Assembly (NCBI GenBank): GCA_964549305.1 | Contig: CAZJVM010000077.1 | Location: 1 to 11,157 of the forward strand | DNA from: an uncultured bacterium | GTDB lineage: Bacteria > Schekmanbacteria > GWA2-38-11 > J061 | Direction of reading: 5' to 3' | DNA length: 11,157 nucleotides | Shown here: positions 328 through 11,005 of the stretch, piece by piece | Layout of the letters: the number at the start of each line of letters is the position of its first letter | How positions within the stretch are numbered: position 1 is the stretch's first letter | Program-made: the position numbers and the translations under genes | The notes under the pieces: model-generated | The model's input: the letters and a program-made list of their open reading frames with translations, nothing else | Database searches by the model: none | What the model was told of the DNA's origin: nothing

Positions 328-1632
328 ATGTTGAGAAGACTGTTGATGTTCCTGTTCGTTTTATCCGCTTTTTTTATTATTTCTAATCCTTTAATTGTGT
401 CCTCGGAAGAATCTTCAACAAGTGCGAAATGCATAAATTGCCATGAAAAGGAGAGAATTGCGCGCGCAGCAATCGAGGAATGGAGCAAAAGCACCCACGC
501 GAAAAACGATGTGGGATGCTTTGACTGCCACGAAGCAAATCAGGAAGACCCCGATGCCCTATCCCATTACGGAAATTACATTTCTGTCATAGTAACGCCA
601 AAAGACTGCGGGCAGTGCCACGACAGGGAAGCAAATGAATTTCAGGGCAGTCATCACGCGAAAGCAGGCGCCATATTGGGTTCTCTTGATAATGTGCTCG
701 GTGAAATCGTAGAAGGCGTTGCCGCCGCGAACAGCGGTTGTAAGCAGTGCCACGGTTCGAAGGTCGCTCTTCTTCCAAACGGAAAGCTTGATCCTGCAAC
801 ATGGCCCAATACGGGAATCGGCAGAATCAATCTTGACGGAAGCAGGGGTGCCTGCTCTGCCTGTCACTCAAGGCACAGCTTTTCCGTTGAGACTGCACGC
901 CGTCCCGATAACTGCGGAAAATGTCATCTCGGTCCCGATCATCCACAGAAAGAAATTTACGACGAGTCAAAGCACGGAATAGCGTTTTACGCCAATGAAG
1001 ATAAGATGAATCTCAAGGCAAGGCCGTGGATACTCGGCAAGGACTATTCTGCCGCGCCTACCTGTGCCACCTGTCATATGAGTGCTACTCCGGAACTGCC
1101 TGTGACCCACGATGTGGGTTCAAGGATAAGCTGGACATTAAGGCCTGTCGTCTCGAAGAAGCTTGAAAACTGGGAGGAGAAAAGGACAACTATGAAGGGA
1201 GTCTGCACTGAGTGCCATTCGCCTTCATATGTTGACGGTTTTTATAAACAGTTTGATGAAGTCGTGAACCTTTACAATAATAAATTCGCAATACCTGCAA
1301 AGAATATAATGGCAAAACTTAAAGCAGAAAAGAAACTGACGCCCACTCCCTTTGATGATGAGATTGAGTGGACATTCTTCTTTTTGTGGCATCACGAAGG
1401 AAGGCGCGCGAGACACGGCGCGGCAATGATGGGTCCTGATTATACACAGTGGCACGGATTCTTCGAGGTTGCGGAAAGATTTTATGTTGAATTCCTTCCT
1501 CAGGCAGAGGAGCTTTTGCCCGGAGTTACAAAGGAAGTAGATGATATGGACCTTCATAAGTGGAGGAAAGGACTCTCGAAAGAGGAGAGAGACAAGATTA
1601 AGGGTTTTTATCAGAAAAGATACGGGCAGTAA
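328..1632 (+). CDS. hao: Octaheme cytochrome c, hydroxylamine oxidoreductase (HAO) family; periplasmic, probably reductive type
   Basis: Sec-type signal peptide (MLRRLL-hydrophobic-VSS/EE). Eight CxxCH motifs: CINCH, CFDCH, CGQCH, CKQCH, CSACH, CGKCH, CATCH, CTECH. HAO-family signatures CHSRHSFS, CHLGPDHPQKEIY..SKHG, PTCATCHM and the C-terminal helical region HHEGRRARHGAAMMGPDYTQWHG. Confidence 0.9.
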   Translation: MLRRLLMFLFVLSAFFIISNPLIVSSEESSTSAKCINCHEKERIARAAIEEWSKSTHAKNDVGCFDCHEANQEDPDALSHYGNYISVIVTPKDCGQCHDREANEFQGSHHAKAGAILGSLDNVLGEIVEGVAAANSGCKQCHGSKVALLPNGKLDPATWPNTGIGRINLDGSRGACSACHSRHSFSVETARRPDNCGKCHLGPDHPQKEIYDESKHGIAFYANEDKMNLKARPWILGKDYSAAPTCATCHMSATPELPVTHDVGSRISWTLRPVVSKKLENWEEKRTTMKGVCTECHSPSYVDGFYKQFDEVVNLYNNKFAIPAKNIMAKLKAEKKLTPTPFDDEIEWTFFFLWHHEGRRARHGAAMMGPDYTQWHGFFEVAERFYVEFLPQAEELLPGVTKEVDDMDLHKWRKGLSKEERDKIKGFYQKRYGQ

Positions 1633-1721: not shown

Positions 1722-3602
1722 GTGCCTGATTACAAAGTAGAAATACCTGATTACGGCTACTGGAAAAAGCAGATTAAATGTCAGGAAGCATGTCCCGTGC
1801 ATACCGATTCAGGCGGTTATGTGAGGGCAATCGCGGAAGGCAATTATGAACTGGCATATCTCATAGCAAGAGGTCCAAACCCCCTTGCTTCAATTTGCGG
1901 CAGAGTTTGCGGGGCGCCCTGCGAGGCATCGTGCAGGCGCGGTTCAGTTGATGAAGCAGTTTCCATAAGGGCGCTTAAGAGGTTCGTAATTGAAAGTCTT
2001 GCCCTTGAAGGGGATGAAAACCTCGCCGAGAAATTCTTCCACCGTCTTAAAAATTTCATATCACCGCAAAAATGCAGCGCCGGCGAAGAGCTTGCCGCTC
2101 TCAAAGATTTTCTCAACAGTGCCGGCATAAAGAAACCTCAAGGCGAAAAGATTGCCATTATAGGAAGTGGACCTGCGGGACTTGCCGCGGCGCACGACCT
2201 TTGCCTTCTCGGTCTTCGCCCCGTTATTTTTGAAATGGAACCTGTCCCCGCGGGAATGCTCTATCTCGGCGTGCCTGAATACAGACTTCCGAGGGAGATA
2301 ATCGAAGCGGAAGTGGAAGTAATCAAGTCACTCGGCACGGAGATAAAATGTAACATTCAGGTGGGCAAGGACATAACTCTTGAAGAAATCCGCAAGGAGT
2401 ACAAGGCGACTCTTATTGCGGTAGGGGCAAAAAAATCGGCAAAGATTCCCATCCCCGGTGTTGACGCAAAGGGGGTTATCGGAGGTGTTGAACTTCTGAG
2501 GTCAGTGGCGTTGGGCGAAGAGGTAAAGCTCGGAGAAAAGGTCATCGTAATAGGCGGCGGAAATGTTGCCTATGATGTGGCGCGTACCGTTGTAAGGCAG
2601 GCGGAATACGATGTGTCGAGAACGGCATTGAGGCAGGAGTCGGTTAAGGAAGTGAAACTTTACTGTCTTGAATCCCTCGAAGAGATGCCTGCCGATGACG
2701 TTGAAATTAACGAAGGTGATGAGGAAGGAGTGAGCAGGCATAACAGTTGGGGACCGGTGGAAATAATCCTCGATAACGGAAGAGCAAGAGGTGTGAAATT
2801 CAAGAAATGTCTTTCCGTATATGACGAGAACAAGAGATTTTCACCTGTTTTTGATGAAGCAAATATAATGGACAGCGATGCCGATACGGTAATTCTCTCC
2901 ATAGGACAGGTTGCAGACCTTTCATTCATCGATTCTGACAGGGACAAAATCAAACTCACCGAAAGAGGTCAGATTGTAGTAAATCCTGAAACGTTGCAGT
3001 CGTCATCGCAGGATGTTTTCGTGGCAGGCGATATCGCTCATGGCACGAAACTTATGATTGATGCCATTTCAAGCGGAAAGCAGGCAGCAAGAAGTATGTT
3101 CGAAAAGGTAACCGGCAAAAAACTGGAAGTTGACCGCAAAGCAGGTTTTACTCTCCTTGAAAATTATGACCGCGAAAAGGATTACGAAAAATTTCACCGC
3201 ACCCATCCTCCAACCGCCCATCCGTCGGAAAGGAAAGATTCAGTGAAGGTGACCGTTGAAAAAGGATATCCGGAAAAACAGGCAGTGAGGGAAGGCGTAC
3301 GTTGTTATTCCTGCGACATACAGACGATTTTTCACAGCGAAAGATGTATTCTTTGCGCGGGTTGTGAGGATGTATGTCCGCTCAGATGCCTCAGGGTTGT
3401 AAGAGTGGAATCAATAAGAGGTGATGAAAAACTTGAAAAACTTCTTCACCGCAGATACGGAGAAAACGCGCCTAAGAGGGGAAGCGCGGTTATAAAGGAT
3501 GAAACGGAATGTATCAGGTGCGGGCTTTGTGCCAAGCGTTGCCCCGCACTGGCTATAACGATGGAACAATTTAAATTCAAAGAGAGCTATTCAGTCAAAT
3601 AA
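1722..3602 (+). CDS. FAD/NAD(P)-dependent iron-sulfur oxidoreductase (GltD/NfnL/SudA-like) with C-terminal 2x[4Fe-4S] ferredoxin domain
   Basis: GTG start, with an in-frame TGA at 1713 ruling out earlier starts. N-terminal Cys motifs CQEACPVH and CGRVCGAPCEASC. FAD motif IIGSGPAG, GVPEYRLP, nucleotide motif VIGGGNVA, VFVAGD and RCYSC. Ferredoxin motifs CILCAGCEDVCP and CIRCGLCAKRCP. No signal peptide or TM helix. Confidence 0.9.
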   Translation: MPDYKVEIPDYGYWKKQIKCQEACPVHTDSGGYVRAIAEGNYELAYLIARGPNPLASICGRVCGAPCEASCRRGSVDEAVSIRALKRFVIESLALEGDENLAEKFFHRLKNFISPQKCSAGEELAALKDFLNSAGIKKPQGEKIAIIGSGPAGLAAAHDLCLLGLRPVIFEMEPVPAGMLYLGVPEYRLPREIIEAEVEVIKSLGTEIKCNIQVGKDITLEEIRKEYKATLIAVGAKKSAKIPIPGVDAKGVIGGVELLRSVALGEEVKLGEKVIVIGGGNVAYDVARTVVRQAEYDVSRTALRQESVKEVKLYCLESLEEMPADDVEINEGDEEGVSRHNSWGPVEIILDNGRARGVKFKKCLSVYDENKRFSPVFDEANIMDSDADTVILSIGQVADLSFIDSDRDKIKLTERGQIVVNPETLQSSSQDVFVAGDIAHGTKLMIDAISSGKQAARSMFEKVTGKKLEVDRKAGFTLLENYDREKDYEKFHRTHPPTAHPSERKDSVKVTVEKGYPEKQAVREGVRCYSCDIQTIFHSERCILCAGCEDVCPLRCLRVVRVESIRGDEKLEKLLHRRYGENAPKRGSAVIKDETECIRCGLCAKRCPALAITMEQFKFKESYSVK

Positions 3603-3624: not shown

Positions 3625-4080
3625 ATGGAAGATAAAAAAATAGACCGCAGAAGTTTTCTTGAAAAGACCGGATTCTATTCCTTCTGGCTTACAATAGTTG
3701 CATCGGTTACGGGAATGCTCAGGTATTTTCTGCCGGAGGTTTTCGATGAACCGTCAATGTCATTCCGTCTTGGCAAATCGGAGGATTTTTCAAATGAGGA
3801 GGCAATACTCCTCGAGGATAAAAACCTTTTCGTAATCAAAGACTCCGAAGGTCTTTATGTAATTTCCGCCGTATGTACTCATCTCGGATGTATTGTAGCG
3901 CGCACGGACATCGGTTATGCCTGTCCCTGCCACGGGAGCAAATTCGATTTGAAAGGCAATGTGGTGGGCGGACCCGCACCCAGAAGTCTCTCCTGGTTCA
4001 AGGTTTACAGGTCTGCTGAAGGATATCTGATGGTTGATACTTCAAAGAGCGTGAAAATCGGAGAGAAATTAAAGATTTAA
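3625..4080 (+). CDS. qcrA: Rieske [2Fe-2S] subunit of a Rieske/cytochrome b complex
   Basis: Tat motif DRRSFLE followed by a hydrophobic anchor. Rieske boxes CTHLGC and CPCHGSKF, and GPAPRSL loop. RBS GAGGGGAG upstream. Adjacent to cytochrome b. Confidence 0.93.
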   Translation: MEDKKIDRRSFLEKTGFYSFWLTIVASVTGMLRYFLPEVFDEPSMSFRLGKSEDFSNEEAILLEDKNLFVIKDSEGLYVISAVCTHLGCIVARTDIGYACPCHGSKFDLKGNVVGGPAPRSLSWFKVYRSAEGYLMVDTSKSVKIGEKLKI

Positions 4081-4100: not shown

Positions 4101-5654
4101 ATGGCAGGTACCGATAAAAAAGCAATACCTGGTATCTTTATCGATAATCTGAAGAAAATCCCGACTTCATTTAAGGAGGCGTTTGTCAGACACGACCTTC
4201 CGCCGGAATCGGAGAGAGAAAGGGCATCGGCTGTCTTTTCCAATTTTTTTCTTCATCTTCATCCCACAAGAGTCAGCTCACACGTGCTCAAACCTACATA
4301 CACTCTCGGTTTGGGGCTTATGTGCGTATTTCTTTTTCTCATACTTGCTGTAACAGGTGTTATTCTGATGGTTTATTATGTTCCCTATGTGCCTGATGCG
4401 TATGAATCCGTTAAAAATATCCGCTACGCGGTTACGGGGGGACAATTCATAATCAATATCCACAGATGGTCTGCCCACGGAATGGTCTTAATCGTGATAT
4501 TCCATATGATGAGGGTCTTCTACACGGGTTCCTATAAATCCCCGCGTGAATTCAACTGGGTTGTGGGAGTCATACTGCTTGTTCTTACTCTTGCCCTGAG
4601 CTTCAGCGGTTATCTTCTTCCTTATGACCAGCTTGCATACTGGGCAATGACAATCGGCTCGAATATTGCGGGCTCTGTCACTGAATTTACCGATGCTATA
4701 GGAATAACCGGCATTTTCGATGTGGGCAAACTTCAGAAACAGATTTTAATCGGTGGCAATAAAATAGGTGAGTCGGCACTTTTAAGGTTTTATTTTCTAC
4801 ACGTTATTTTCCTTCCCATTGTTATAAGTATTTTCATAGGCGTCCATCTCTGGAGAATCACGAAGGACGGCGGACTTTCAAAACCGGGAGAGGAGACTGA
4901 GAGAATAGATTATCTTGATGTTGACGGGGAGAACGTTCCCAATACTGACAAAACATACGGGCTTATGTCCATTGTACGCGGGAATACTCCGCAGGTGGGA
5001 AATTATACCGACGATACCGTTCCCACCTGGCCCAATGTACTTCTTGCCGAAGGGGCGGTTTTTGTCTTCTGCGTCGCGGTAATGTGCCTTCTTTCCCTTT
5101 TCTTCGATGCGCCGTTGAAGGAGATAGCAAACGCGGCAGTACCTGAAAATCCTGCAAAAGCACCCTGGTATTTTCTCGGGCTTCAGGAACTTGTAAGCTA
5201 TTCGGCGTTTATCGGAGGCATAGTCGCTCCTGCCGTTACGGTAATAGGGCTTATGCTGATACCTTTTCTCGACAGGGAAAGAACGAATGTTGGCGTGTGG
5301 TTCTCAGGTTCTGAGGGAATCAGGATAGTCTTCAGGTCGCTTTTTTTCGGATTCGTGAGCATTGTTCTTTTAATCGGATTTACCGTGCAGTTTGGCTGGC
5401 TCAGAAACTGGTTCCCGGGAATTCCTCAGTTGATGATAATCCTCATTAATCCCGCAACTATAATAATGGCGCTTTTTGCCTACTGGTATTTTAAAATAAT
5501 CAAAGAGACCGGCTCAATGAGAATGGCTTCCATAGGGCTTTTCACGCTTATTATTGTGGGGTTTGCAGTGTTGACTTATGTAGGGGTTTTTCTCAGGGGG
5601 CCTAACTGGGATTTCTACTGGTTCAAATCACAGTGGCCGGGCATTCATTTTTAA
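4101..5654 (+). CDS. qcrB: Cytochrome b subunit (cytochrome b6-like domain fused to subunit IV-like domain)
   Basis: Heme b ligand pairs HRWSAHGMVLIVIFH and HVIFLPIVISIFIGVH. Motifs YKSPREFNWVVG, SGYLLPYDQLAYWA and LLRFYFLH. Subunit IV-like region WPN...PENPAKAPWYFLGLQEL...IPFLD...RGPNW. Multiple hydrophobic helices. GGAGG RBS. Confidence 0.93.
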   Translation: MAGTDKKAIPGIFIDNLKKIPTSFKEAFVRHDLPPESERERASAVFSNFFLHLHPTRVSSHVLKPTYTLGLGLMCVFLFLILAVTGVILMVYYVPYVPDAYESVKNIRYAVTGGQFIINIHRWSAHGMVLIVIFHMMRVFYTGSYKSPREFNWVVGVILLVLTLALSFSGYLLPYDQLAYWAMTIGSNIAGSVTEFTDAIGITGIFDVGKLQKQILIGGNKIGESALLRFYFLHVIFLPIVISIFIGVHLWRITKDGGLSKPGEETERIDYLDVDGENVPNTDKTYGLMSIVRGNTPQVGNYTDDTVPTWPNVLLAEGAVFVFCVAVMCLLSLFFDAPLKEIANAAVPENPAKAPWYFLGLQELVSYSAFIGGIVAPAVTVIGLMLIPFLDRERTNVGVWFSGSEGIRIVFRSLFFGFVSIVLLIGFTVQFGWLRNWFPGIPQLMIILINPATIIMALFAYWYFKIIKETGSMRMASIGLFTLIIVGFAVLTYVGVFLRGPNWDFYWFKSQWPGIHF

Positions 5655-5741: not shown

Positions 5742-8288
5742 ATGAAGAAATTTTTCGCATATTCAAGCATCGCGGCTTTTTTATTAATCGTTATTGCCTT
5801 ATTGATTAATATTAATCCCCAGTGGAAGCATTATCAGAAGGAGTACAAAAAAATTGCAGCAGAAAAAATAAATGACAAGGAAATACTCGAACTCATCCTC
5901 GACAAGAATATTTCTCTTCAGCAAAATTTTGTCAAATCATTCGGAAAGAAAGACCGCTGTATTGCGTGCCATCTTGGAATCGAAAATCCCTATATGGCAG
6001 ATGTTGAACAGCCATTCACGAAACATCCTGGAAACATCCTTGATATCCATCCGGCGGAAAAATACGGCTGTACCATTTGTCACGAAGGGCAGGGGGTAGC
6101 CACGAATACGGAAGATGCTCACGGCATAGGAACACCTTATGTTGAACGGCCTATGCTCACAGGTCCCTTCATTCAGTCGTCGTGTATGAAATGCCACAGG
6201 GATGTTGACTCAATAGGTACGGAAATGCTTTCCCGCGGGAGAATGCTTTTCAGAGAGAATGGTTGTCAGAATTGCCACAGGGTAAAAGGGAAGGGCGGGA
6301 ATCGCGGTCCCGAACTTACATATATATCCGATGCGAGCATTTATATTAAGCATTCCACAGAAAATAACCTTCACGAATATCTTAAAAAGTTCAGTGAAAA
6401 TTATAATATTGCCTTCATCTTCGAATCTGTACTTCAACCGAAAGCACAACCGGAAAATTCGGCAATGGTTGATTTCAAACTTAATGAAGAGGACGCTCGT
6501 GCAATCACAGTTTATCTGAAGGGACTTACGGCGGAAGATGTTCCTGCGTCTTTCATCCCGGAAGAAAATGTTGAAAAACAGACGGGCAGAGAACTTTTTA
6601 TGCAGTACTGTTCTGTGTGCCACGGCAAAAAAGGCGAAGGCACGCGCCTTCCTGAACTTGGCGGAAAAATTGGTCCCGCAATCGGGAATCAGCAGTTTCT
6701 CGCAATCGCGGATACTGCTCTTCTGAAATATATAATTACAAATTCAAAGGGCGGTCCTATGCCCGCATGGGGGACAACGGGAGGACTTGATGAGAGCGAG
6801 ATAAACAAAATTGTCGCTTATGTTAAAAACTTTCGCACGCCTCCCCCGTCTTACAAAGAAGTAGCGGAAGCAGACGGAAACACCGCGTTCGGTGAAATGA
6901 TATTTATGGCAAACTGTTCCGGTTGCCACGGCATAGACGGTAAACACGAAACTGACCTCATAGGTCCCACTCTCAACAATCCCCAGCTTTTATCAATGGC
7001 GACGAAGAGATTCTGGTATGACACACTTACACAGGGAAGGGAAGGAACAGCAATGCCTTCGTGGAATTTTCTTGGCACCCGTCAGATTGCCGATGTTATA
7101 AGTTATCTTGAAAGCTGGAAACCGAAAAAACGTTATGTTTCCACTGCCCTTGCGACTTCCGGTTCTTCTTCCCGCGGCGGAAAATCATTTAGAATGTATT
7201 GTGCCGGATGTCACGGCAAATCCGCCGAAGGCGTAATAGGACCAAGTCTTCGCGCGCCTGAATTTTTGAGGATTGCGGGTTCACGCTTCCTTTATAGAAC
7301 CATTGTTGAAGGACGCGCTGAAACGGCTATGCCTTCATTCAGATATCTTCCTTCGCGGATAGTTGCGGACATAGTCGCGTATATTAAATCATTATACAAA
7401 GGGCCTGAAAAAAACTTGCCCTACATAAGAGTAAGAGGTTCGGAATATAACGGTGAGAATATTTTCAGCCGTATCTGCGCGCAGTGCCACGGCATTAAGG
7501 GTCAGGGCGGGATAGGTCCCGCAATCGGGAGAAAAGGATTCCTTGGGCAGGTTTCAGATTCTTTCCTCAGAGAAATAATACGTTACGGGCGAAGCGGTAC
7601 GCAGATGAGGGCAAATCTCGCGGGGCATGGCGGTCTTGTTGAACTGTCAAGGCGCGATATAGATGACACCATTTCCTACATAAGAACTCTTGATAACAGC
7701 AATAACCTGAACCCTTCATACATAGAAGGTGATGCCCTGTTGGGAAAAGAGAGATTCAGACGCCTTTGCGGGCAGTGTCACGGACTTGAGGGTGAAGGCG
7801 GGATTGGACCTGCAATCGGCAAGACAGCATTTCTGAACGCTGTTAGTGACGGCTTTATTCAGGCAATGGTCACAAGAGGCAGGGACGGAACGGAAATGAG
7901 GCCATTTACCGAAACAGGTGACGGCATTGCGCGCCTTGATGAAAAAGAGCTTTCCAATATCATTGCCTATCTTCGTTCACATTCCCATGAAGTGGATGGA
8001 ATATCAAAGTCTCTCACAGGGACGCCTGTTTCAGGAAAAATGCTTTTTGAAAGGAATTGCGCGCAGTGCCACGGTTATGAAGGAATGGGAAGTTTTGCTC
8101 CGGAGCTTGGAACATCACAATTCCTGAAAGCCGCGTCAGACAGTTATCTGCAGGCGACAATGGCGCTTGGAAGACATCAGACATTAATGAAGCCAATGAT
8201 AAGAGGAGGCGCCGGTGTAGTGGAACTTACATCAAAGGAAGTGAATGACATTATATCGTACCTAAGGACTATACAGAGAGATTATTGA
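5742..8288 (+). CDS. Membrane-anchored decaheme cytochrome c with tandem class I (CcoP-like) domains
   Basis: N-terminal hydrophobic helix. Ten CxxCH motifs: CIACH, CTICH, CMKCH, CQNCH, CSVCH, CSGCH, CAGCH, CAQCH, CGQCH, CAQCH. The last seven sit in class I-type domains (G..LF...CxxCH..GP....M). Confidence 0.9.
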   Translation: MKKFFAYSSIAAFLLIVIALLININPQWKHYQKEYKKIAAEKINDKEILELILDKNISLQQNFVKSFGKKDRCIACHLGIENPYMADVEQPFTKHPGNILDIHPAEKYGCTICHEGQGVATNTEDAHGIGTPYVERPMLTGPFIQSSCMKCHRDVDSIGTEMLSRGRMLFRENGCQNCHRVKGKGGNRGPELTYISDASIYIKHSTENNLHEYLKKFSENYNIAFIFESVLQPKAQPENSAMVDFKLNEEDARAITVYLKGLTAEDVPASFIPEENVEKQTGRELFMQYCSVCHGKKGEGTRLPELGGKIGPAIGNQQFLAIADTALLKYIITNSKGGPMPAWGTTGGLDESEINKIVAYVKNFRTPPPSYKEVAEADGNTAFGEMIFMANCSGCHGIDGKHETDLIGPTLNNPQLLSMATKRFWYDTLTQGREGTAMPSWNFLGTRQIADVISYLESWKPKKRYVSTALATSGSSSRGGKSFRMYCAGCHGKSAEGVIGPSLRAPEFLRIAGSRFLYRTIVEGRAETAMPSFRYLPSRIVADIVAYIKSLYKGPEKNLPYIRVRGSEYNGENIFSRICAQCHGIKGQGGIGPAIGRKGFLGQVSDSFLREIIRYGRSGTQMRANLAGHGGLVELSRRDIDDTISYIRTLDNSNNLNPSYIEGDALLGKERFRRLCGQCHGLEGEGGIGPAIGKTAFLNAVSDGFIQAMVTRGRDGTEMRPFTETGDGIARLDEKELSNIIAYLRSHSHEVDGISKSLTGTPVSGKMLFERNCAQCHGYEGMGSFAPELGTSQFLKAASDSYLQATMALGRHQTLMKPMIRGGAGVVELTSKEVNDIISYLRTIQRDY
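6582..8270 (+). repeat. Six tandem ~92-102 aa monoheme cytochrome c domains (intragenic repeat)
   Basis: CxxCH motifs start at 6609, 6915, 7200, 7476, 7767 and 8058. The shared pattern is CxxCHG..G.G.IGP.(I/L)...FL......L...I..GR..T.M. Exact DNA repeats: GGTCCCGCAATCGGGA (6672, 7515) and TGCGCGCAGTGCCACGG (7476, 8058). Confidence 0.85.
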
Positions 8289-8335: not shown

Positions 8336-11005
8336 ATGGGAAAAAAAGGTAACGTAACACGCAGAAATTTTTTGAAATGCACCGCGGCGGGAACAATAGG
8401 TGCAGGCCTTGGGCTTGACGGAATGTTGTTTGCTCCGGATAAAGTGCTTGCCGAAGAAATGGGAGCCAGAGGTCTTATTGAAAAAATATCCCAGTGTCCG
8501 TACTGCGGTGTCGGTTGCGGAACTGTCATAAAAGCAGATCCCAAAACAGGAAAAATTGTGGGAGTCGTTCCTGATAAACAGCATCCCACAAACCGCGGTG
8601 TGCAGTGCATAAAGGGACTAAATGCTGATGAACCGACATATGTTGACAGGTTGACCAAAGTTCTCATCAGAAAAGATATGTCCGACCCTGAAAAGGGGTA
8701 TGAGTCGCAGACAAAGGGGAGTTTTGATGATGATGTGTGGAGGGAGGCAACCTACGAGGAAGCGGAAAAGCTTGTGTCTGAAAAGGCAGGCGCTATTGTG
8801 AAAAAATACGGGGGCAACTCCGTAGGCCTTTACGGCTCCGGACAGCTTACCGTTGAAGCACAATGGATGGAAAACAAACTGGTTAAAGGAATCCTTCAGT
8901 CAAACTCCATTGAAGCTAACGCAAGGATGTGTATGACAAGCGCGGTTACGGCGTATTTTGCAACATTGGGTTCGGATACTCCTCCTCTCTGCTATGACGA
9001 CATTGAAATGAGCGATATGATAACCTTCTGGGGGCATAACCCCCGCGAATCTCACCCAATAGTTTTCTGGCGCGCCGCAGACCATAAGAAAAAGAACGGA
9101 ATACCCACATTGGTTTCCGACCCGAGGCGCACCGGAACCGTTCAGGCGCTTGAATCGGTTAATCCCAGAAACAGCCATCACTTCGCTTCTATAAACGGAG
9201 ATATATCCTGCCTGAATGCCATTGCTCACTGCCTTGTAACAGAGCATGAGCAGGTAATCGATTATAAGTTTTTAAAGGAAAATGTAACAGGGTGGCAGGA
9301 GTATATTGCTACGGTTAAAAAAGATTATGCCCCAGAAAAAGTTAAAGACAGGACAATGGTTGAGCCGGCGCTTATAAGAAAAATTGCTTCCGAATGGGCT
9401 GCCGCAACAATGAAGGGCAGAAGGCGCGGGACGGGTGGTGTCATTTCATTCTGGGGTATCGGCTATAACCAGCACATCCACGGTCAGCATAATGTAATCA
9501 GCATCATCAACCTCCACGCCCTGACAGGAAATATCGGCAGACCGGGCGCAGGCCCTTTTTCAATGACAGGACAGCCCAATGCAATGGGTGAACGGTTGAT
9601 GGGGGGATTGACAGGCAGACTTCCTTTTAATGAAGCGCTTGCAAATCAAAAACACCGCGAATGGATGAATGAAAGCTGGAATCTTCCAAAAGGACGGCTT
9701 GATAAGACAGCGGGAGAAAAAAATCCCGGAATGATGATTGGACTTTTCGAGAGGGCGATGAAGGGGGATGTGAAAATGATGTTTTATATGTACACAACCC
9801 ATGTACATCAGCCCGACCTCAATACGCTTATAAGACCCGCGCTGAAGAAGCTTTTTGTTGTTACTCAGGATATTTACAGGCACGCCCCGAATCTTCTTTA
9901 TTCAGATGTTGTTTTCCCCGCGATGACCTGGGGAGAATGGCAGGGCGGAACATATATAAGCTCAGAGAGAAGATTTGATATTTGTGACGGAGTGGGCAAA
10001 ACCGCTGACGGTATTGAAGGATGCCTTCCTGATCTTGATATGGCGATTGACAAGGGTAAAAACATTGCAAAACTTCTCGGTCTGGACGGCGAGAAAATCT
10101 TTCCATACAAGAAAAGGAAATTTCATCCCACGGGAACAGAACTTTATGACGCAGAGGAAGTTTTTGAAGAAATCGTCAAGGCATCAAAGGGAACAGACTG
10201 CGACCTGACAGGTATGCTTGAAGTGAGGAAAAAGGACGGAACGGGTTTATATGACCAGATCAGGATGCACCGCGGTATTCAGTGGCCTGCTCCAAATTAT
10301 GAAATTGCGAAGGCAGGCGGGACAAAGAGACGCTATATGGGGCAGGAAGAAGGCTGGACAAAGAAACCCTATGGCGCGTTCAGGCACAGCGACGGGAAAC
10401 TTCATATAAAGACGTGCAAGCAGGATTATTCCCGGAGAAAAGCAATGTCAAAGGAGCTTAATAAATTCGGCACGCAAAAAGGTTTTTACACCATTGACCA
10501 TATGGACATCCTCAAGAAGGCGCGCGATATGGCGCTTACTCCTGAATTGCCTGATTTTGAATACAAGGGAAGAAAATGGGATAAGGTTCCAAAGAATAAG
10601 TATCCCTTCTGGCTTGGGCTTGGGATTGTTTATGAACATTTCCATACGGCAAAGACAATTCGCGGAGCAACAACAAGACGTCTTGTTCCTGAACAGTATG
10701 TTGAGATGCATCCTGAAGATGCAAAGGAAAACGGTCTTCATGACGGAGATAAGATACGCGTTACTACAAGAAGAGGGTCTTATGAAGGAAGGGTGAGTGT
10801 GGGTGGAATCAGAAGCAAGGTAAAACCTGCAAGAACCGAAGTGCCGAAAGGTTACATCTTCTCACCGTGGAATCTTTCAGTTGCAGACTCGGCAGACCCT
10901 AAAAAGAATAAATGGCTTGTTAACGCAGTTTCCCACAGGGCTTATGATCCTGTTTCAGGGCAGGCGGATTTTAAAAAGCTTGCGGCAAGAATAGAAAAGA
11001 TTTGA
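8336..11005 (+). CDS. napA: Tat-exported Mo-bisPGD nitrate reductase catalytic subunit (NapA/NasA/NarB clade), divergent
   Basis: Tat signal TRRNFLK...VLA/EE. [4Fe-4S] motif CPYCGVGC...CIKG. YGSGQ, Mo-ligand motif NARMCMTSAV (Cys-Met, typical of nitrate reductases, not the Cys/Sec-His of FDH), WGHNPRESHP, LTGNIGRPGAGPFSMTGQPNAMG and EHFHT. C-terminal VEMHPEDA...DPVSGQADFK. Confidence 0.8.
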   Translation: MGKKGNVTRRNFLKCTAAGTIGAGLGLDGMLFAPDKVLAEEMGARGLIEKISQCPYCGVGCGTVIKADPKTGKIVGVVPDKQHPTNRGVQCIKGLNADEPTYVDRLTKVLIRKDMSDPEKGYESQTKGSFDDDVWREATYEEAEKLVSEKAGAIVKKYGGNSVGLYGSGQLTVEAQWMENKLVKGILQSNSIEANARMCMTSAVTAYFATLGSDTPPLCYDDIEMSDMITFWGHNPRESHPIVFWRAADHKKKNGIPTLVSDPRRTGTVQALESVNPRNSHHFASINGDISCLNAIAHCLVTEHEQVIDYKFLKENVTGWQEYIATVKKDYAPEKVKDRTMVEPALIRKIASEWAAATMKGRRRGTGGVISFWGIGYNQHIHGQHNVISIINLHALTGNIGRPGAGPFSMTGQPNAMGERLMGGLTGRLPFNEALANQKHREWMNESWNLPKGRLDKTAGEKNPGMMIGLFERAMKGDVKMMFYMYTTHVHQPDLNTLIRPALKKLFVVTQDIYRHAPNLLYSDVVFPAMTWGEWQGGTYISSERRFDICDGVGKTADGIEGCLPDLDMAIDKGKNIAKLLGLDGEKIFPYKKRKFHPTGTELYDAEEVFEEIVKASKGTDCDLTGMLEVRKKDGTGLYDQIRMHRGIQWPAPNYEIAKAGGTKRRYMGQEEGWTKKPYGAFRHSDGKLHIKTCKQDYSRRKAMSKELNKFGTQKGFYTIDHMDILKKARDMALTPELPDFEYKGRKWDKVPKNKYPFWLGLGIVYEHFHTAKTIRGATTRRLVPEQYVEMHPEDAKENGLHDGDKIRVTTRRGSYEGRVSVGGIRSKVKPARTEVPKGYIFSPWNLSVADSADPKKNKWLVNAVSHRAYDPVSGQADFKKLAARIEKI

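Follow-up and report, generated by a model that had tools for sequence, protein, structure and literature searches.

A GltD/NfnB-type flavoprotein as putative cytoplasmic subunit of a Rieske/cytochrome b complex outside the anammox bacteria

The anammox bacterium Kuenenia stuttgartiensis encodes two Rieske/cytochrome b (cyt b) complexes, Kuste4569-4574 and Kustd1480-1485, each with a putative nicotinamide adenine dinucleotide (phosphate) (NAD(P)) oxidoreductase on the cytoplasmic side, according to the passages on them in PMC12954380. These passages give the proposal of Kartal et al. 2013 as a quinol bifurcation, in which one electron is sent uphill to NAD(P)+ and the other to a high-potential acceptor. 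They also report, citing de Almeida 2016, that all subunits of the Kuenenia complex co-migrate, and they describe AlphaFold3 models with four iron-sulfur (FeS) clusters. In these models, His43 from each of two cyt b monomers binds an additional, unexpected b haem, which is lined by Kuste4571 His43 and Kuste4570 Arg511 (PMC12954380). According to the relevant part of PMC5600118, genes for oxidoreductases of this type are found close to those for short cyt b "in many other cases". Here we analyse one gene of this kind, at positions 1722-3602 of an 11,157-bp contig of an uncultured bacterium (CAZJVM010000077.1, assembly GCA_964549305.1), hereafter the window, and compare the cluster around it with the described complexes.

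The window is the entire contig (C77) of a 2.94-Mb genome with a marker completeness of 100%. The nearest named proteins to its RpoB are those of Candidatus Schekmanbacteria (87% and 76% identity). An anammox host was considered and ruled out, since hydrazine dehydrogenase is not found above the family cut-off in this genome. Six genes lie on one strand, separated by gaps of 20-89 nucleotides, and the flavoprotein gene is placed between that of an octahaem cytochrome and those of a Rieske protein, cyt b, a 10-haem cytochrome and a NapA-like enzyme:

328..1632, + strand: octahaem c-type cytochrome, 434 residues, eight CxxCH motifs, N-terminal hydrophobic leader, hydroxylamine oxidoreductase (HAO)/octahaem family (family and motif scans)
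1722..3602, + strand: GltD/NfnB-type flavin adenine dinucleotide (FAD) flavoprotein, 626 residues, probably four FeS clusters, predicted cytoplasmic subunit (Pfam, motifs, phmmer)
3625..4080, + strand: Rieske [2Fe-2S] protein, 151 residues, RR-containing N-terminal anchor, box II CPCHGSKF with Ser105/Phe107 (family and motif scans)
4101..5654, + strand: cyt b, 517 residues, fused b6-like and subunit-IV-like parts (family and motif scans)
5742..8288, + strand: 10-haem cytochrome c, 848 residues, one N-terminal membrane anchor, then a c7/c3-like part and six class-I cytochrome c domains
8336..11005, + strand: NapA-like molybdopterin enzyme, 889 residues, predicted to be exported by twin-arginine translocation (TAT) (Pfam, NCBIfam, solved-structure matches)

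We propose that the 626-residue protein is the cytoplasmic (N-side) subunit of the Rieske/cyt b complex, and we favour a forward mode in which quinol would reduce both an N-oxide and NAD+; to this reading as a whole we give about an even chance. The interpretation is not new, as it restates the published, still unproven hypothesis for the Kuenenia complexes. That the flavoprotein belongs to the cytochrome bc-type (bc) complex is strongly supported by comparative evidence, because gene linkage holds both ways and because the protein is homologous over its full length to flavoproteins of anammox Rieske/cyt b loci.

A scan of species-representative genomes returned at least 583 relatives of the flavoprotein, and we examined the best 80 loci (L011-L090), which come from many phyla and nearly all from metagenome-assembled genomes. 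Linkage was counted only at loci whose contig leaves room, and for the Rieske gene within 400 nucleotides on the same strand. A Rieske gene follows the flavoprotein gene in 69 of 69 such loci and a cyt b gene in 63 of 63. After cyt b comes, in 59 of 60 loci, a relative of the multihaem cytochrome of the window, the exception being L042. For the reverse test we took 17 genomes with a cyt b at least 50% identical to that of the window (E <=1e-131) from a sample of 401 Planctomycetota genomes. The flavoprotein is on the same contig in all 17, and directly upstream on the same strand in 16. The lone close cyt b orthologue without an adjacent flavoprotein (G366:C137) has the gene 6.4 kb away on the opposite strand. 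Three remoter cyt b genes (47% identity) likewise adjoin a flavoprotein homologue. The initial annotation had read the flavoprotein as part of a bc-complex operon, which these counts bear out: homologous operons do not commonly lack the gene, the linkage being tight in both directions.

The flavoprotein belongs to a large family: of 8,000 candidates scored, 7,994 reach E <=0.001, and identity in the best 120 is 57-88% across 99-100% of the length. Hosts of the relatives include Acidobacteriota, Planctomycetota, Omnitrophota, Poribacteria, Desulfobacterota and the Candidatus Schekmanbacteria relative that carries the window. The distribution is patchy: of 41 related genomes (window genome included) only three have the gene, and one genome of the same genus, 97% complete, is without it. 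A genome of the same family, G007, holds the whole six-gene cluster at 66-82% identity.

The flavoprotein open reading frame begins with GTG on the + strand, and the alignments of its relatives begin at residue 2-4, so this start codon is consistent with them. Pfam places Fer4_20 at residues 17-92 (E 2.1e-17) and Pyr_redox_2 at residues 143-452 (E 1.8e-27), both above the gathering score, and Fer4, Fer4_10 and Fer4_7 (4Fe-4S dicluster) at residues 537-613. The following elements can be located along the gene:

1770..1997, + strand: N-terminal Fer4_20-type cluster domain, residues 17-92, with Cys 20, 24, 59, 63, 67 and 71 (Pfam and motif script)
2163..2180, + strand: FAD Rossmann motif GSGPAG, residues 148-153 (script; invariant in the flavoprotein alignment A1)
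2274..2291, + strand: PEYRLP motif, residues 185-190 (script; solved homologues align with PEYRLP or PEFRLP)
2553..2570, + strand: second Rossmann (NAD(P)) motif GGGNVA, residues 278-283 (script and alignment A1)
2664..2675, + strand: CLES, residues 315-318, replacing the NADPH-type YRR[T/S/G] (alignment to solved homologues and anammox subunits)
3303..3542, + strand: C-terminal Cys-rich region, with RCxxC (527-531) and a 2x[4Fe-4S] ferredoxin domain (542-552, 597-607) (Pfam and script)

By its Fer4_20 plus Pyr_redox_2 module, then, the protein is classified as an FeS flavoprotein of the GltD/NfnB/dihydropyrimidine dehydrogenase (DPD) type. Its phmmer matches among solved structures lie far outside chance similarity and include 9bov_A (E 8.8e-89), the NfnI large subunit 5jca_L (E 7.8e-54), Thermotoga NfnB 4ylf_B (E 1.4e-50), GltD 2vdc_G (E 1.3e-39) and DPD (E 2.8e-24); the NCBIfam GltD models score it far under their cut-off (e.g. 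172 versus 483 bits). An AlphaFold2 model built from a 24-row alignment is poor (mean predicted local distance difference test 61.9, below 50 in the FeS domains), and the fold assignment therefore rests on the sequence matches.

The six N-terminal Cys are kept in 80 of 80 related loci. The script finds 11 more in the C-terminal region, namely Cys 528, 531 and 556 and two CxxCxxCxxxCP motifs at 542 and 597; all are kept in 73 of 80 loci, six of the other seven being not covered and one partly covered. Arg527 is kept in 74 of 74 covered loci and is shared with the anammox loci described below. Residues 512-534 (3255-3323), of the form GY...RCxxC, align weakly to the opening N-terminal segment of NfnB (domain score -1.2). 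Lying after the flavin domains, this segment has the look of an N-terminal cluster domain that has been circularly permuted. Because of that alignment, Cys528 and Cys531 are probably the missing ligands of the N-terminal-type clusters; the total would then be four clusters, as many as are modelled for the Kuenenia subunits. The NfnL/GltD-like character of the protein, its Rossmann, PEYRLP and Cys motifs and its additional 2x[4Fe-4S] domain were all listed in the initial annotation and were all found again (Pfam, script, phmmer). The protein was likewise correctly described as having no export signal: the script detects neither a twin-arginine nor a hydrophobic leader, the Kyte-Doolittle maximum being 1.4 per 19 residues, with no stretch at or above 1.6.

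Three groups of homologues place these features in context. Like the window protein, NfnB/NfnL (5jca_L, 4ylf_B) combines FAD and NAD(P) Rossmann domains with an N-terminal two-cluster domain; unlike it, the window flavoprotein has the additional C-terminal 2x[4Fe-4S] domain, lacks the NADPH Arg pair, and has no NfnA/NfnS in the window. The best solved sequence matches, 9bov_A ('Molybdopterin oxidoreductase'), 9n5u_A ('NfnA') and 8oh5_C, align from the FAD domain to the C-terminal Cys-rich region (query 136-609). They are soluble proteins of 960-1180 residues, fused to other catalytic domains, and keep YRR, whereas the window flavoprotein is free-standing and linked to membrane bc genes. A third group appeared among 372 longer homologues, the best 120 of which are mostly HdrA-like fusions and include no fusion with Rieske or cyt b domains. 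One protein of 1,198 residues (P0241) is 41% identical over 99% of the flavoprotein and carries cytochrome c Pfam domains; it may be a true fusion or a gene-calling artefact.

The anammox complexes provide a further comparison. Hydrazine dehydrogenase is above cut-off in 16 of the 401 sampled Planctomycetota genomes, and in each of five that were probed the flavoprotein matches three paralogues. In the anammox genome G177, two of the paralogues lie inside Rieske/cyt b loci (L108 and L109), with gene orders as reported for Kustd1480-85 and Kuste4569-74. In tblastn they align to the window flavoprotein at 35% identity (query 3-621, E 3.7e-100) and 34% identity (query 10-626, E 5.2e-91). Kuste4570 and Kustd1483 have the same domain order and the same four Cys clusters as the window protein, and the Kuenenia complexes, like the window, have the flavoprotein gene inside a cluster of Rieske, cyt b and multihaem cytochrome genes with an HAO-like octahaem gene. 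Also shared are the APWY Qo motif, the five-helix subunit IV part and a Ser-containing Rieske protein of the high-potential type. Counting on the G177 homologue L109, His43 of Kuste4571 corresponds to His52 of the window cyt b; flavoprotein Arg527 is presumably the counterpart of Kuste4570 Arg511.

There are also differences. Gene order is Rieske-flavoprotein-cyt b or Rieske-cyt b-flavoprotein in anammox loci, versus flavoprotein-Rieske-cyt b in the window. The window cyt b is fused to subunit IV and has Gly70 instead of the haem cN Cys; the flavoprotein has CLES and an insert instead of YRRT, as well as an extra insert of about 35 residues with Cys118 relative to the Kuenenia oxidoreductase; and a NapA-like enzyme is attached to the cluster. 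The flavoprotein is only 34-35% identical to its anammox homologues, in a host without hydrazine dehydrogenase above cut-off. We built a flavoprotein tree (FastTree, 53 rows) by taking alternate loci of L011-L090 and adding L081, L084 and a selection of others, with L013, L015, L085 and L002 dropped as incomplete. The window falls in a well-supported clade of 40 rows, and both anammox types stand outside it as separate clades. The window complex appears, from its genes, to be of the same kind as the Rieske/cyt b complexes of anammox bacteria that bear an NAD(P) oxidoreductase, with clade-specific variants.

The Rieske protein and cyt b add further points of comparison. The best solved matches of the window Rieske protein are the Kuenenia Rieske crystal structures, 9rk4 (Kuste4569, 1.4e-17) followed by 9rk3 (Kustd1480, 1.3e-15), and its Ser105/Phe107 equals the Ser/Phe pair of Kustd1480. 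The potentials measured for the two Kuenenia proteins are given in PMC12954380 as +303 and +335 mV, the latter for Kustd1480; the Ser-containing Rieske protein of the window is likely of high potential as well. For the window cyt b, the script returns eight non-overlapping hydrophobic segments; we read nine helices by adding helix B, which is below threshold and carries His121 and His135. All four haem ligands (H121/H135/H234/H249) are canonical and shared with the anammox loci, as is the sequence WR[IV]RKD that comes after helix D. His52 lies in the motif FLHLHP and is kept in 69 of 69 loci and in both L108 and L109. The Qo motif APWY at 354-357 is invariant in alignment A2 and occurs in 61 of 63 covered loci. 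Position 70 (4308-4310), opposite the Cys (CxGG) to which haem cN is attached in b6-type cytochromes, is Gly in 69 of 69 loci and Cys (CMGG) in L108 and L109.

An APWY clade of cyt b has been described by Kao and Hunte 2014 as spread over several phyla and paired with Ser-Phe or Ser-Tyr Rieske proteins, in the section of PMC4122944 concerned with it. The window shares the APWY motif, the Ser-Phe ('Mid+') Rieske protein and the patchy spread across phyla; the same section discusses reverse operation and there makes no mention of a flavoprotein subunit (PMC4122944).

On the periplasmic side, the NapA-like enzyme has a TAT signal and an Fe4S4 domain. Its best solved matches are NapA (2nya, E 5.3e-77), with the Mo-Cys context ARMCMTSAV versus ARHCMASAV; however, it reaches only 336 bits versus the NCBIfam NapA cut-off of 904. 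The best solved match of the octahaem cytochrome is 4qo5_A (E 1.7e-45, 'hypothetical multiheme protein'), an octahaem cytochrome of Ignicoccus, and hydroxylamine oxidoreductases and hydrazine dehydrogenase come next. It is a probable periplasmic end enzyme, paralleling the HAO-like Kuste4574 of the Kuenenia complex.

A molybdoenzyme is a recurrent companion of the module: of the 51 loci with at least 5.5 kb past cyt b, 45 have its gene downstream in the same orientation. These 45 partners comprise 24 of the type II dimethyl sulfoxide (DMSO)-reductase family (often with a Fer4_11 beta subunit), 14 NapA-like enzymes, 2 NarG and 5 divergent ones, and the families TIGR03479 (type II DMSO reductase) and TIGR01580 (NarG) are among those represented. 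In six representatives whose N-termini we read by eye, the TAT motif occurs in five, the NarG type being without it. Haloarchaea and Methanoperedens have Rieske/cyt b genes linked to a periplasmic Nar, and their clusters resemble the window in setting a bc-type complex beside a molybdoenzyme of the nitrate-reductase family; we know of no GltD-like flavoprotein in them. Our literature search found no description of a molybdoenzyme linked to the flavoprotein-Rieske-cyt b-cytochrome c module.

We now propose a possible path of electrons through the complex. The flavoprotein would dock on the N-side of the cyt b dimer and form a linear wire, from the pyridine nucleotide to FAD, the two N-terminal-type FeS clusters, the two ferredoxin-type [4Fe-4S] clusters and the N-side haems of cyt b. 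As in the Kuenenia models, an additional haem, with the conserved His52 of both cyt b monomers as ligands, may mediate the final transfer. Menaquinol would be oxidised at the Qo site. Its first electron would pass to the high-potential Rieske cluster, the 10-haem cytochrome and the periplasmic N-oxide reductases (NapA-like enzyme and octahaem cytochrome), while the second, strongly reducing one would cross the b haems and the FeS wire to reach NAD+ or NADP+. This forward direction is favoured because the Rieske protein contains Ser and is likely of high potential, and because the p-side partners resemble nitrate and nitrite reductases. Bifurcation at the Qo site to NAD(P)H, with a high-potential N-oxide sink, had been put forward in the initial annotation; the idea is plausible, but Kartal et al. 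2013 had already proposed it, by the account in PMC12954380.

Flavin-based bifurcation of the Nfn type we reject as unsupported: there is no second branch from FAD and no NfnA-type partner in the window. With a linear wire lacking such a branch it is not expected, and any bifurcation would be quinone-based at Qo. The absence of a gltB, nfnS or preA partner from the operon had been pointed out before, and indeed none of the six window genes is NfnA/NfnS-like, GltB or PreA, a search confined to the window, the rest of the genome not having been searched for NfnA/NfnS.

Predicting the contact directly was uninformative. A run of two cyt b chains (residues 1-290) with four haems and flavoprotein residues 440-626 scored 0.00 twice, with no controls and with cyt b truncated of its subunit IV part and without the fifth haem, and so counts neither way.

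Several points weigh against the forward reading. The first concerns the substrate. Five of five aligned solved homologues have the Arg pair that binds the 2'-phosphate of NADPH after strand 2 of the second Rossmann fold, and the window flavoprotein does not. L-E-S occupies these positions in at least 73 of 80 loci, versus RRT in the anammox L108 and L109, and it is preceded in the same fold by a conserved, clade-specific, Arg-rich insert of 13 residues (2598-2636), in which Arg292, Arg300 and Arg304 are conserved (alignment A1). Rossmann folds with an acidic residue here generally prefer NADH. With Glu317 in place of the Arg pair, the 'NAD(P)H' of the initial annotation may therefore actually be NADH: the GGGNVA motif stands, but the NADPH-type pair is replaced. 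For the window clade the alignment suggests NADH, or an altered nucleotide site, and the missing pair leaves the substrate uncertain.

The second point is that, with Gly at the haem cN Cys position, the N-side haem inventory of the window clade must differ from the published anammox models; the clade lacks the haem cN Cys, and the last step of the modelled anammox electron path therefore differs here. Third, G007 has genes for a NapG-like protein (203 residues, RR leader) and a NapH-like protein (319 residues, Fer4_5) after the NapA-like gene (L111, 12829-15246), and quinol may therefore also reach the nitrate reductase by a separate route that bypasses the bc complex; the window contig stops 152 nucleotides past the NapA-like gene. 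Moreover, even the anammox case stands on co-migration and AlphaFold3 models. Finally, Kao and Hunte, in the section on this clade, argue for a reverse operation of APWY-type complexes, in which the high-potential side is where electrons come in (PMC4122944).

This last point leads to the most serious alternative, which we hold to be possible yet clearly behind the forward mode: the same complex working backwards. NADH or NADPH would be the donor and electrons would enter the b haems from the N-side, quinone being reduced at a Qi-type site, which would make the complex an NADH:quinone/cytochrome c reductase, or else menaquinone in a confurcation (reversed Q cycle) at Qo together with a high-potential periplasmic donor. 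The wire is reversible in principle, the GltD and NfnB relatives normally oxidise NADPH, and an NADH-type site would agree with Glu317 standing where the Arg pair is expected. Substrate oxidisers such as nitrite oxidoreductase also occur in the two families, type II DMSO reductase and NarG, that provide partners at other loci. Reversed flow has also been proposed for the APWY clade, for example beside p-cresol methylhydroxylase in Geobacter metallireducens, in the corresponding section of PMC4122944. However, the periplasmic partners in the window are reductase-like (NapA-like; octahaem nearest to 4qo5), and spending NADH on filling the quinone pool would bring no obvious gain with a nitrate partner.

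It is improbable, to our mind, that the pyridine-nucleotide site is degenerate and that the electron partner of the flavoprotein is not NAD(P) but ferredoxin or some other cytoplasmic carrier. The exchange of the NADPH-binding YRR for CLES and the conserved 13-residue insert would fit such a loss, and a ferredoxin product was also suggested in the initial annotation; on the other hand, GGGNVA and the surrounding fold are invariant in alignment A1, and the conserved Arg residues of the insert could still bind a nucleotide. Least credible of all is a soluble enzyme merely co-transcribed with the bc complex and not binding to it: the lack of fusions to Rieske or cyt b domains mentioned above weakly agrees with it, but the adjacency is invariant in many phyla and in both directions, the flavoprotein has no other partner or substrate domain, and the subunits of the Kuenenia complex, homologue included, are reported to co-migrate in the account of PMC12954380.

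Returning to the forward reading of an N-side subunit, we tentatively extend it to the window clade as a whole. This would be a large non-anammox clade whose flavoprotein, probably of the NADH type, connects to the b haems in the absence of haem cN, while the p-side connects to periplasmic molybdoenzymes of the nitrate-reductase family. If the wire works as proposed for anammox, quinone-based bifurcation to NAD+ (or confurcation), with nitrate or some other high-potential acceptor as the driving sink, would be widespread rather than an anammox speciality, a generalisation that we regard as doubtful for now.

Whether a bc-type complex sends the low-potential quinol electron to NAD(P)+ rather than back to quinone has been a question since the anammox proposal, and anammox bacteria are hard to grow. 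The same module, with sequence variants, is conserved in many other phyla, nearly always beside a molybdoenzyme, which widens the choice of organisms and partner reactions for study. Three variables are offered by the clade: NADH versus NADPH, haem cN present versus absent, and Nap- versus Nar-type partners. What results for the window is a sound annotation: the complex belongs to a known kind, as yet unproven by biochemistry, and shows clade-specific variants worth recording.

Some further observations concern the partner genes and the surroundings of the cluster. The octahaem cytochrome gene occurs, among the 80 loci, in L083 only; G007 also has a syntenic copy (75% identity). The partner in L047 (Omnitrophota), a NarG, scores 1,468 bits and so exceeds the equivalog cut-off; it has no TAT motif and is hence cytoplasmic, unlike the other partners read. 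L078 (Omnitrophota) has a molybdoenzyme of 1,204 residues, the same size as the L047 NarG. Upstream of the cluster in G007 (L111, 339-1860) lie genes for an NIR_SIR/ferredoxin protein, a CBS protein and a ferredoxin; the corresponding window positions are beyond the contig ends. A promoter and terminator scan of the window gave counts at the level of shuffled sequence. The window genome has two more Rieske/cyt b loci, on contigs C55 and C88, with no flavoprotein paralogue on either contig; the C88 cyt b match crosses two TAA stops, and b6 and subunit IV are probably encoded there by two different genes.

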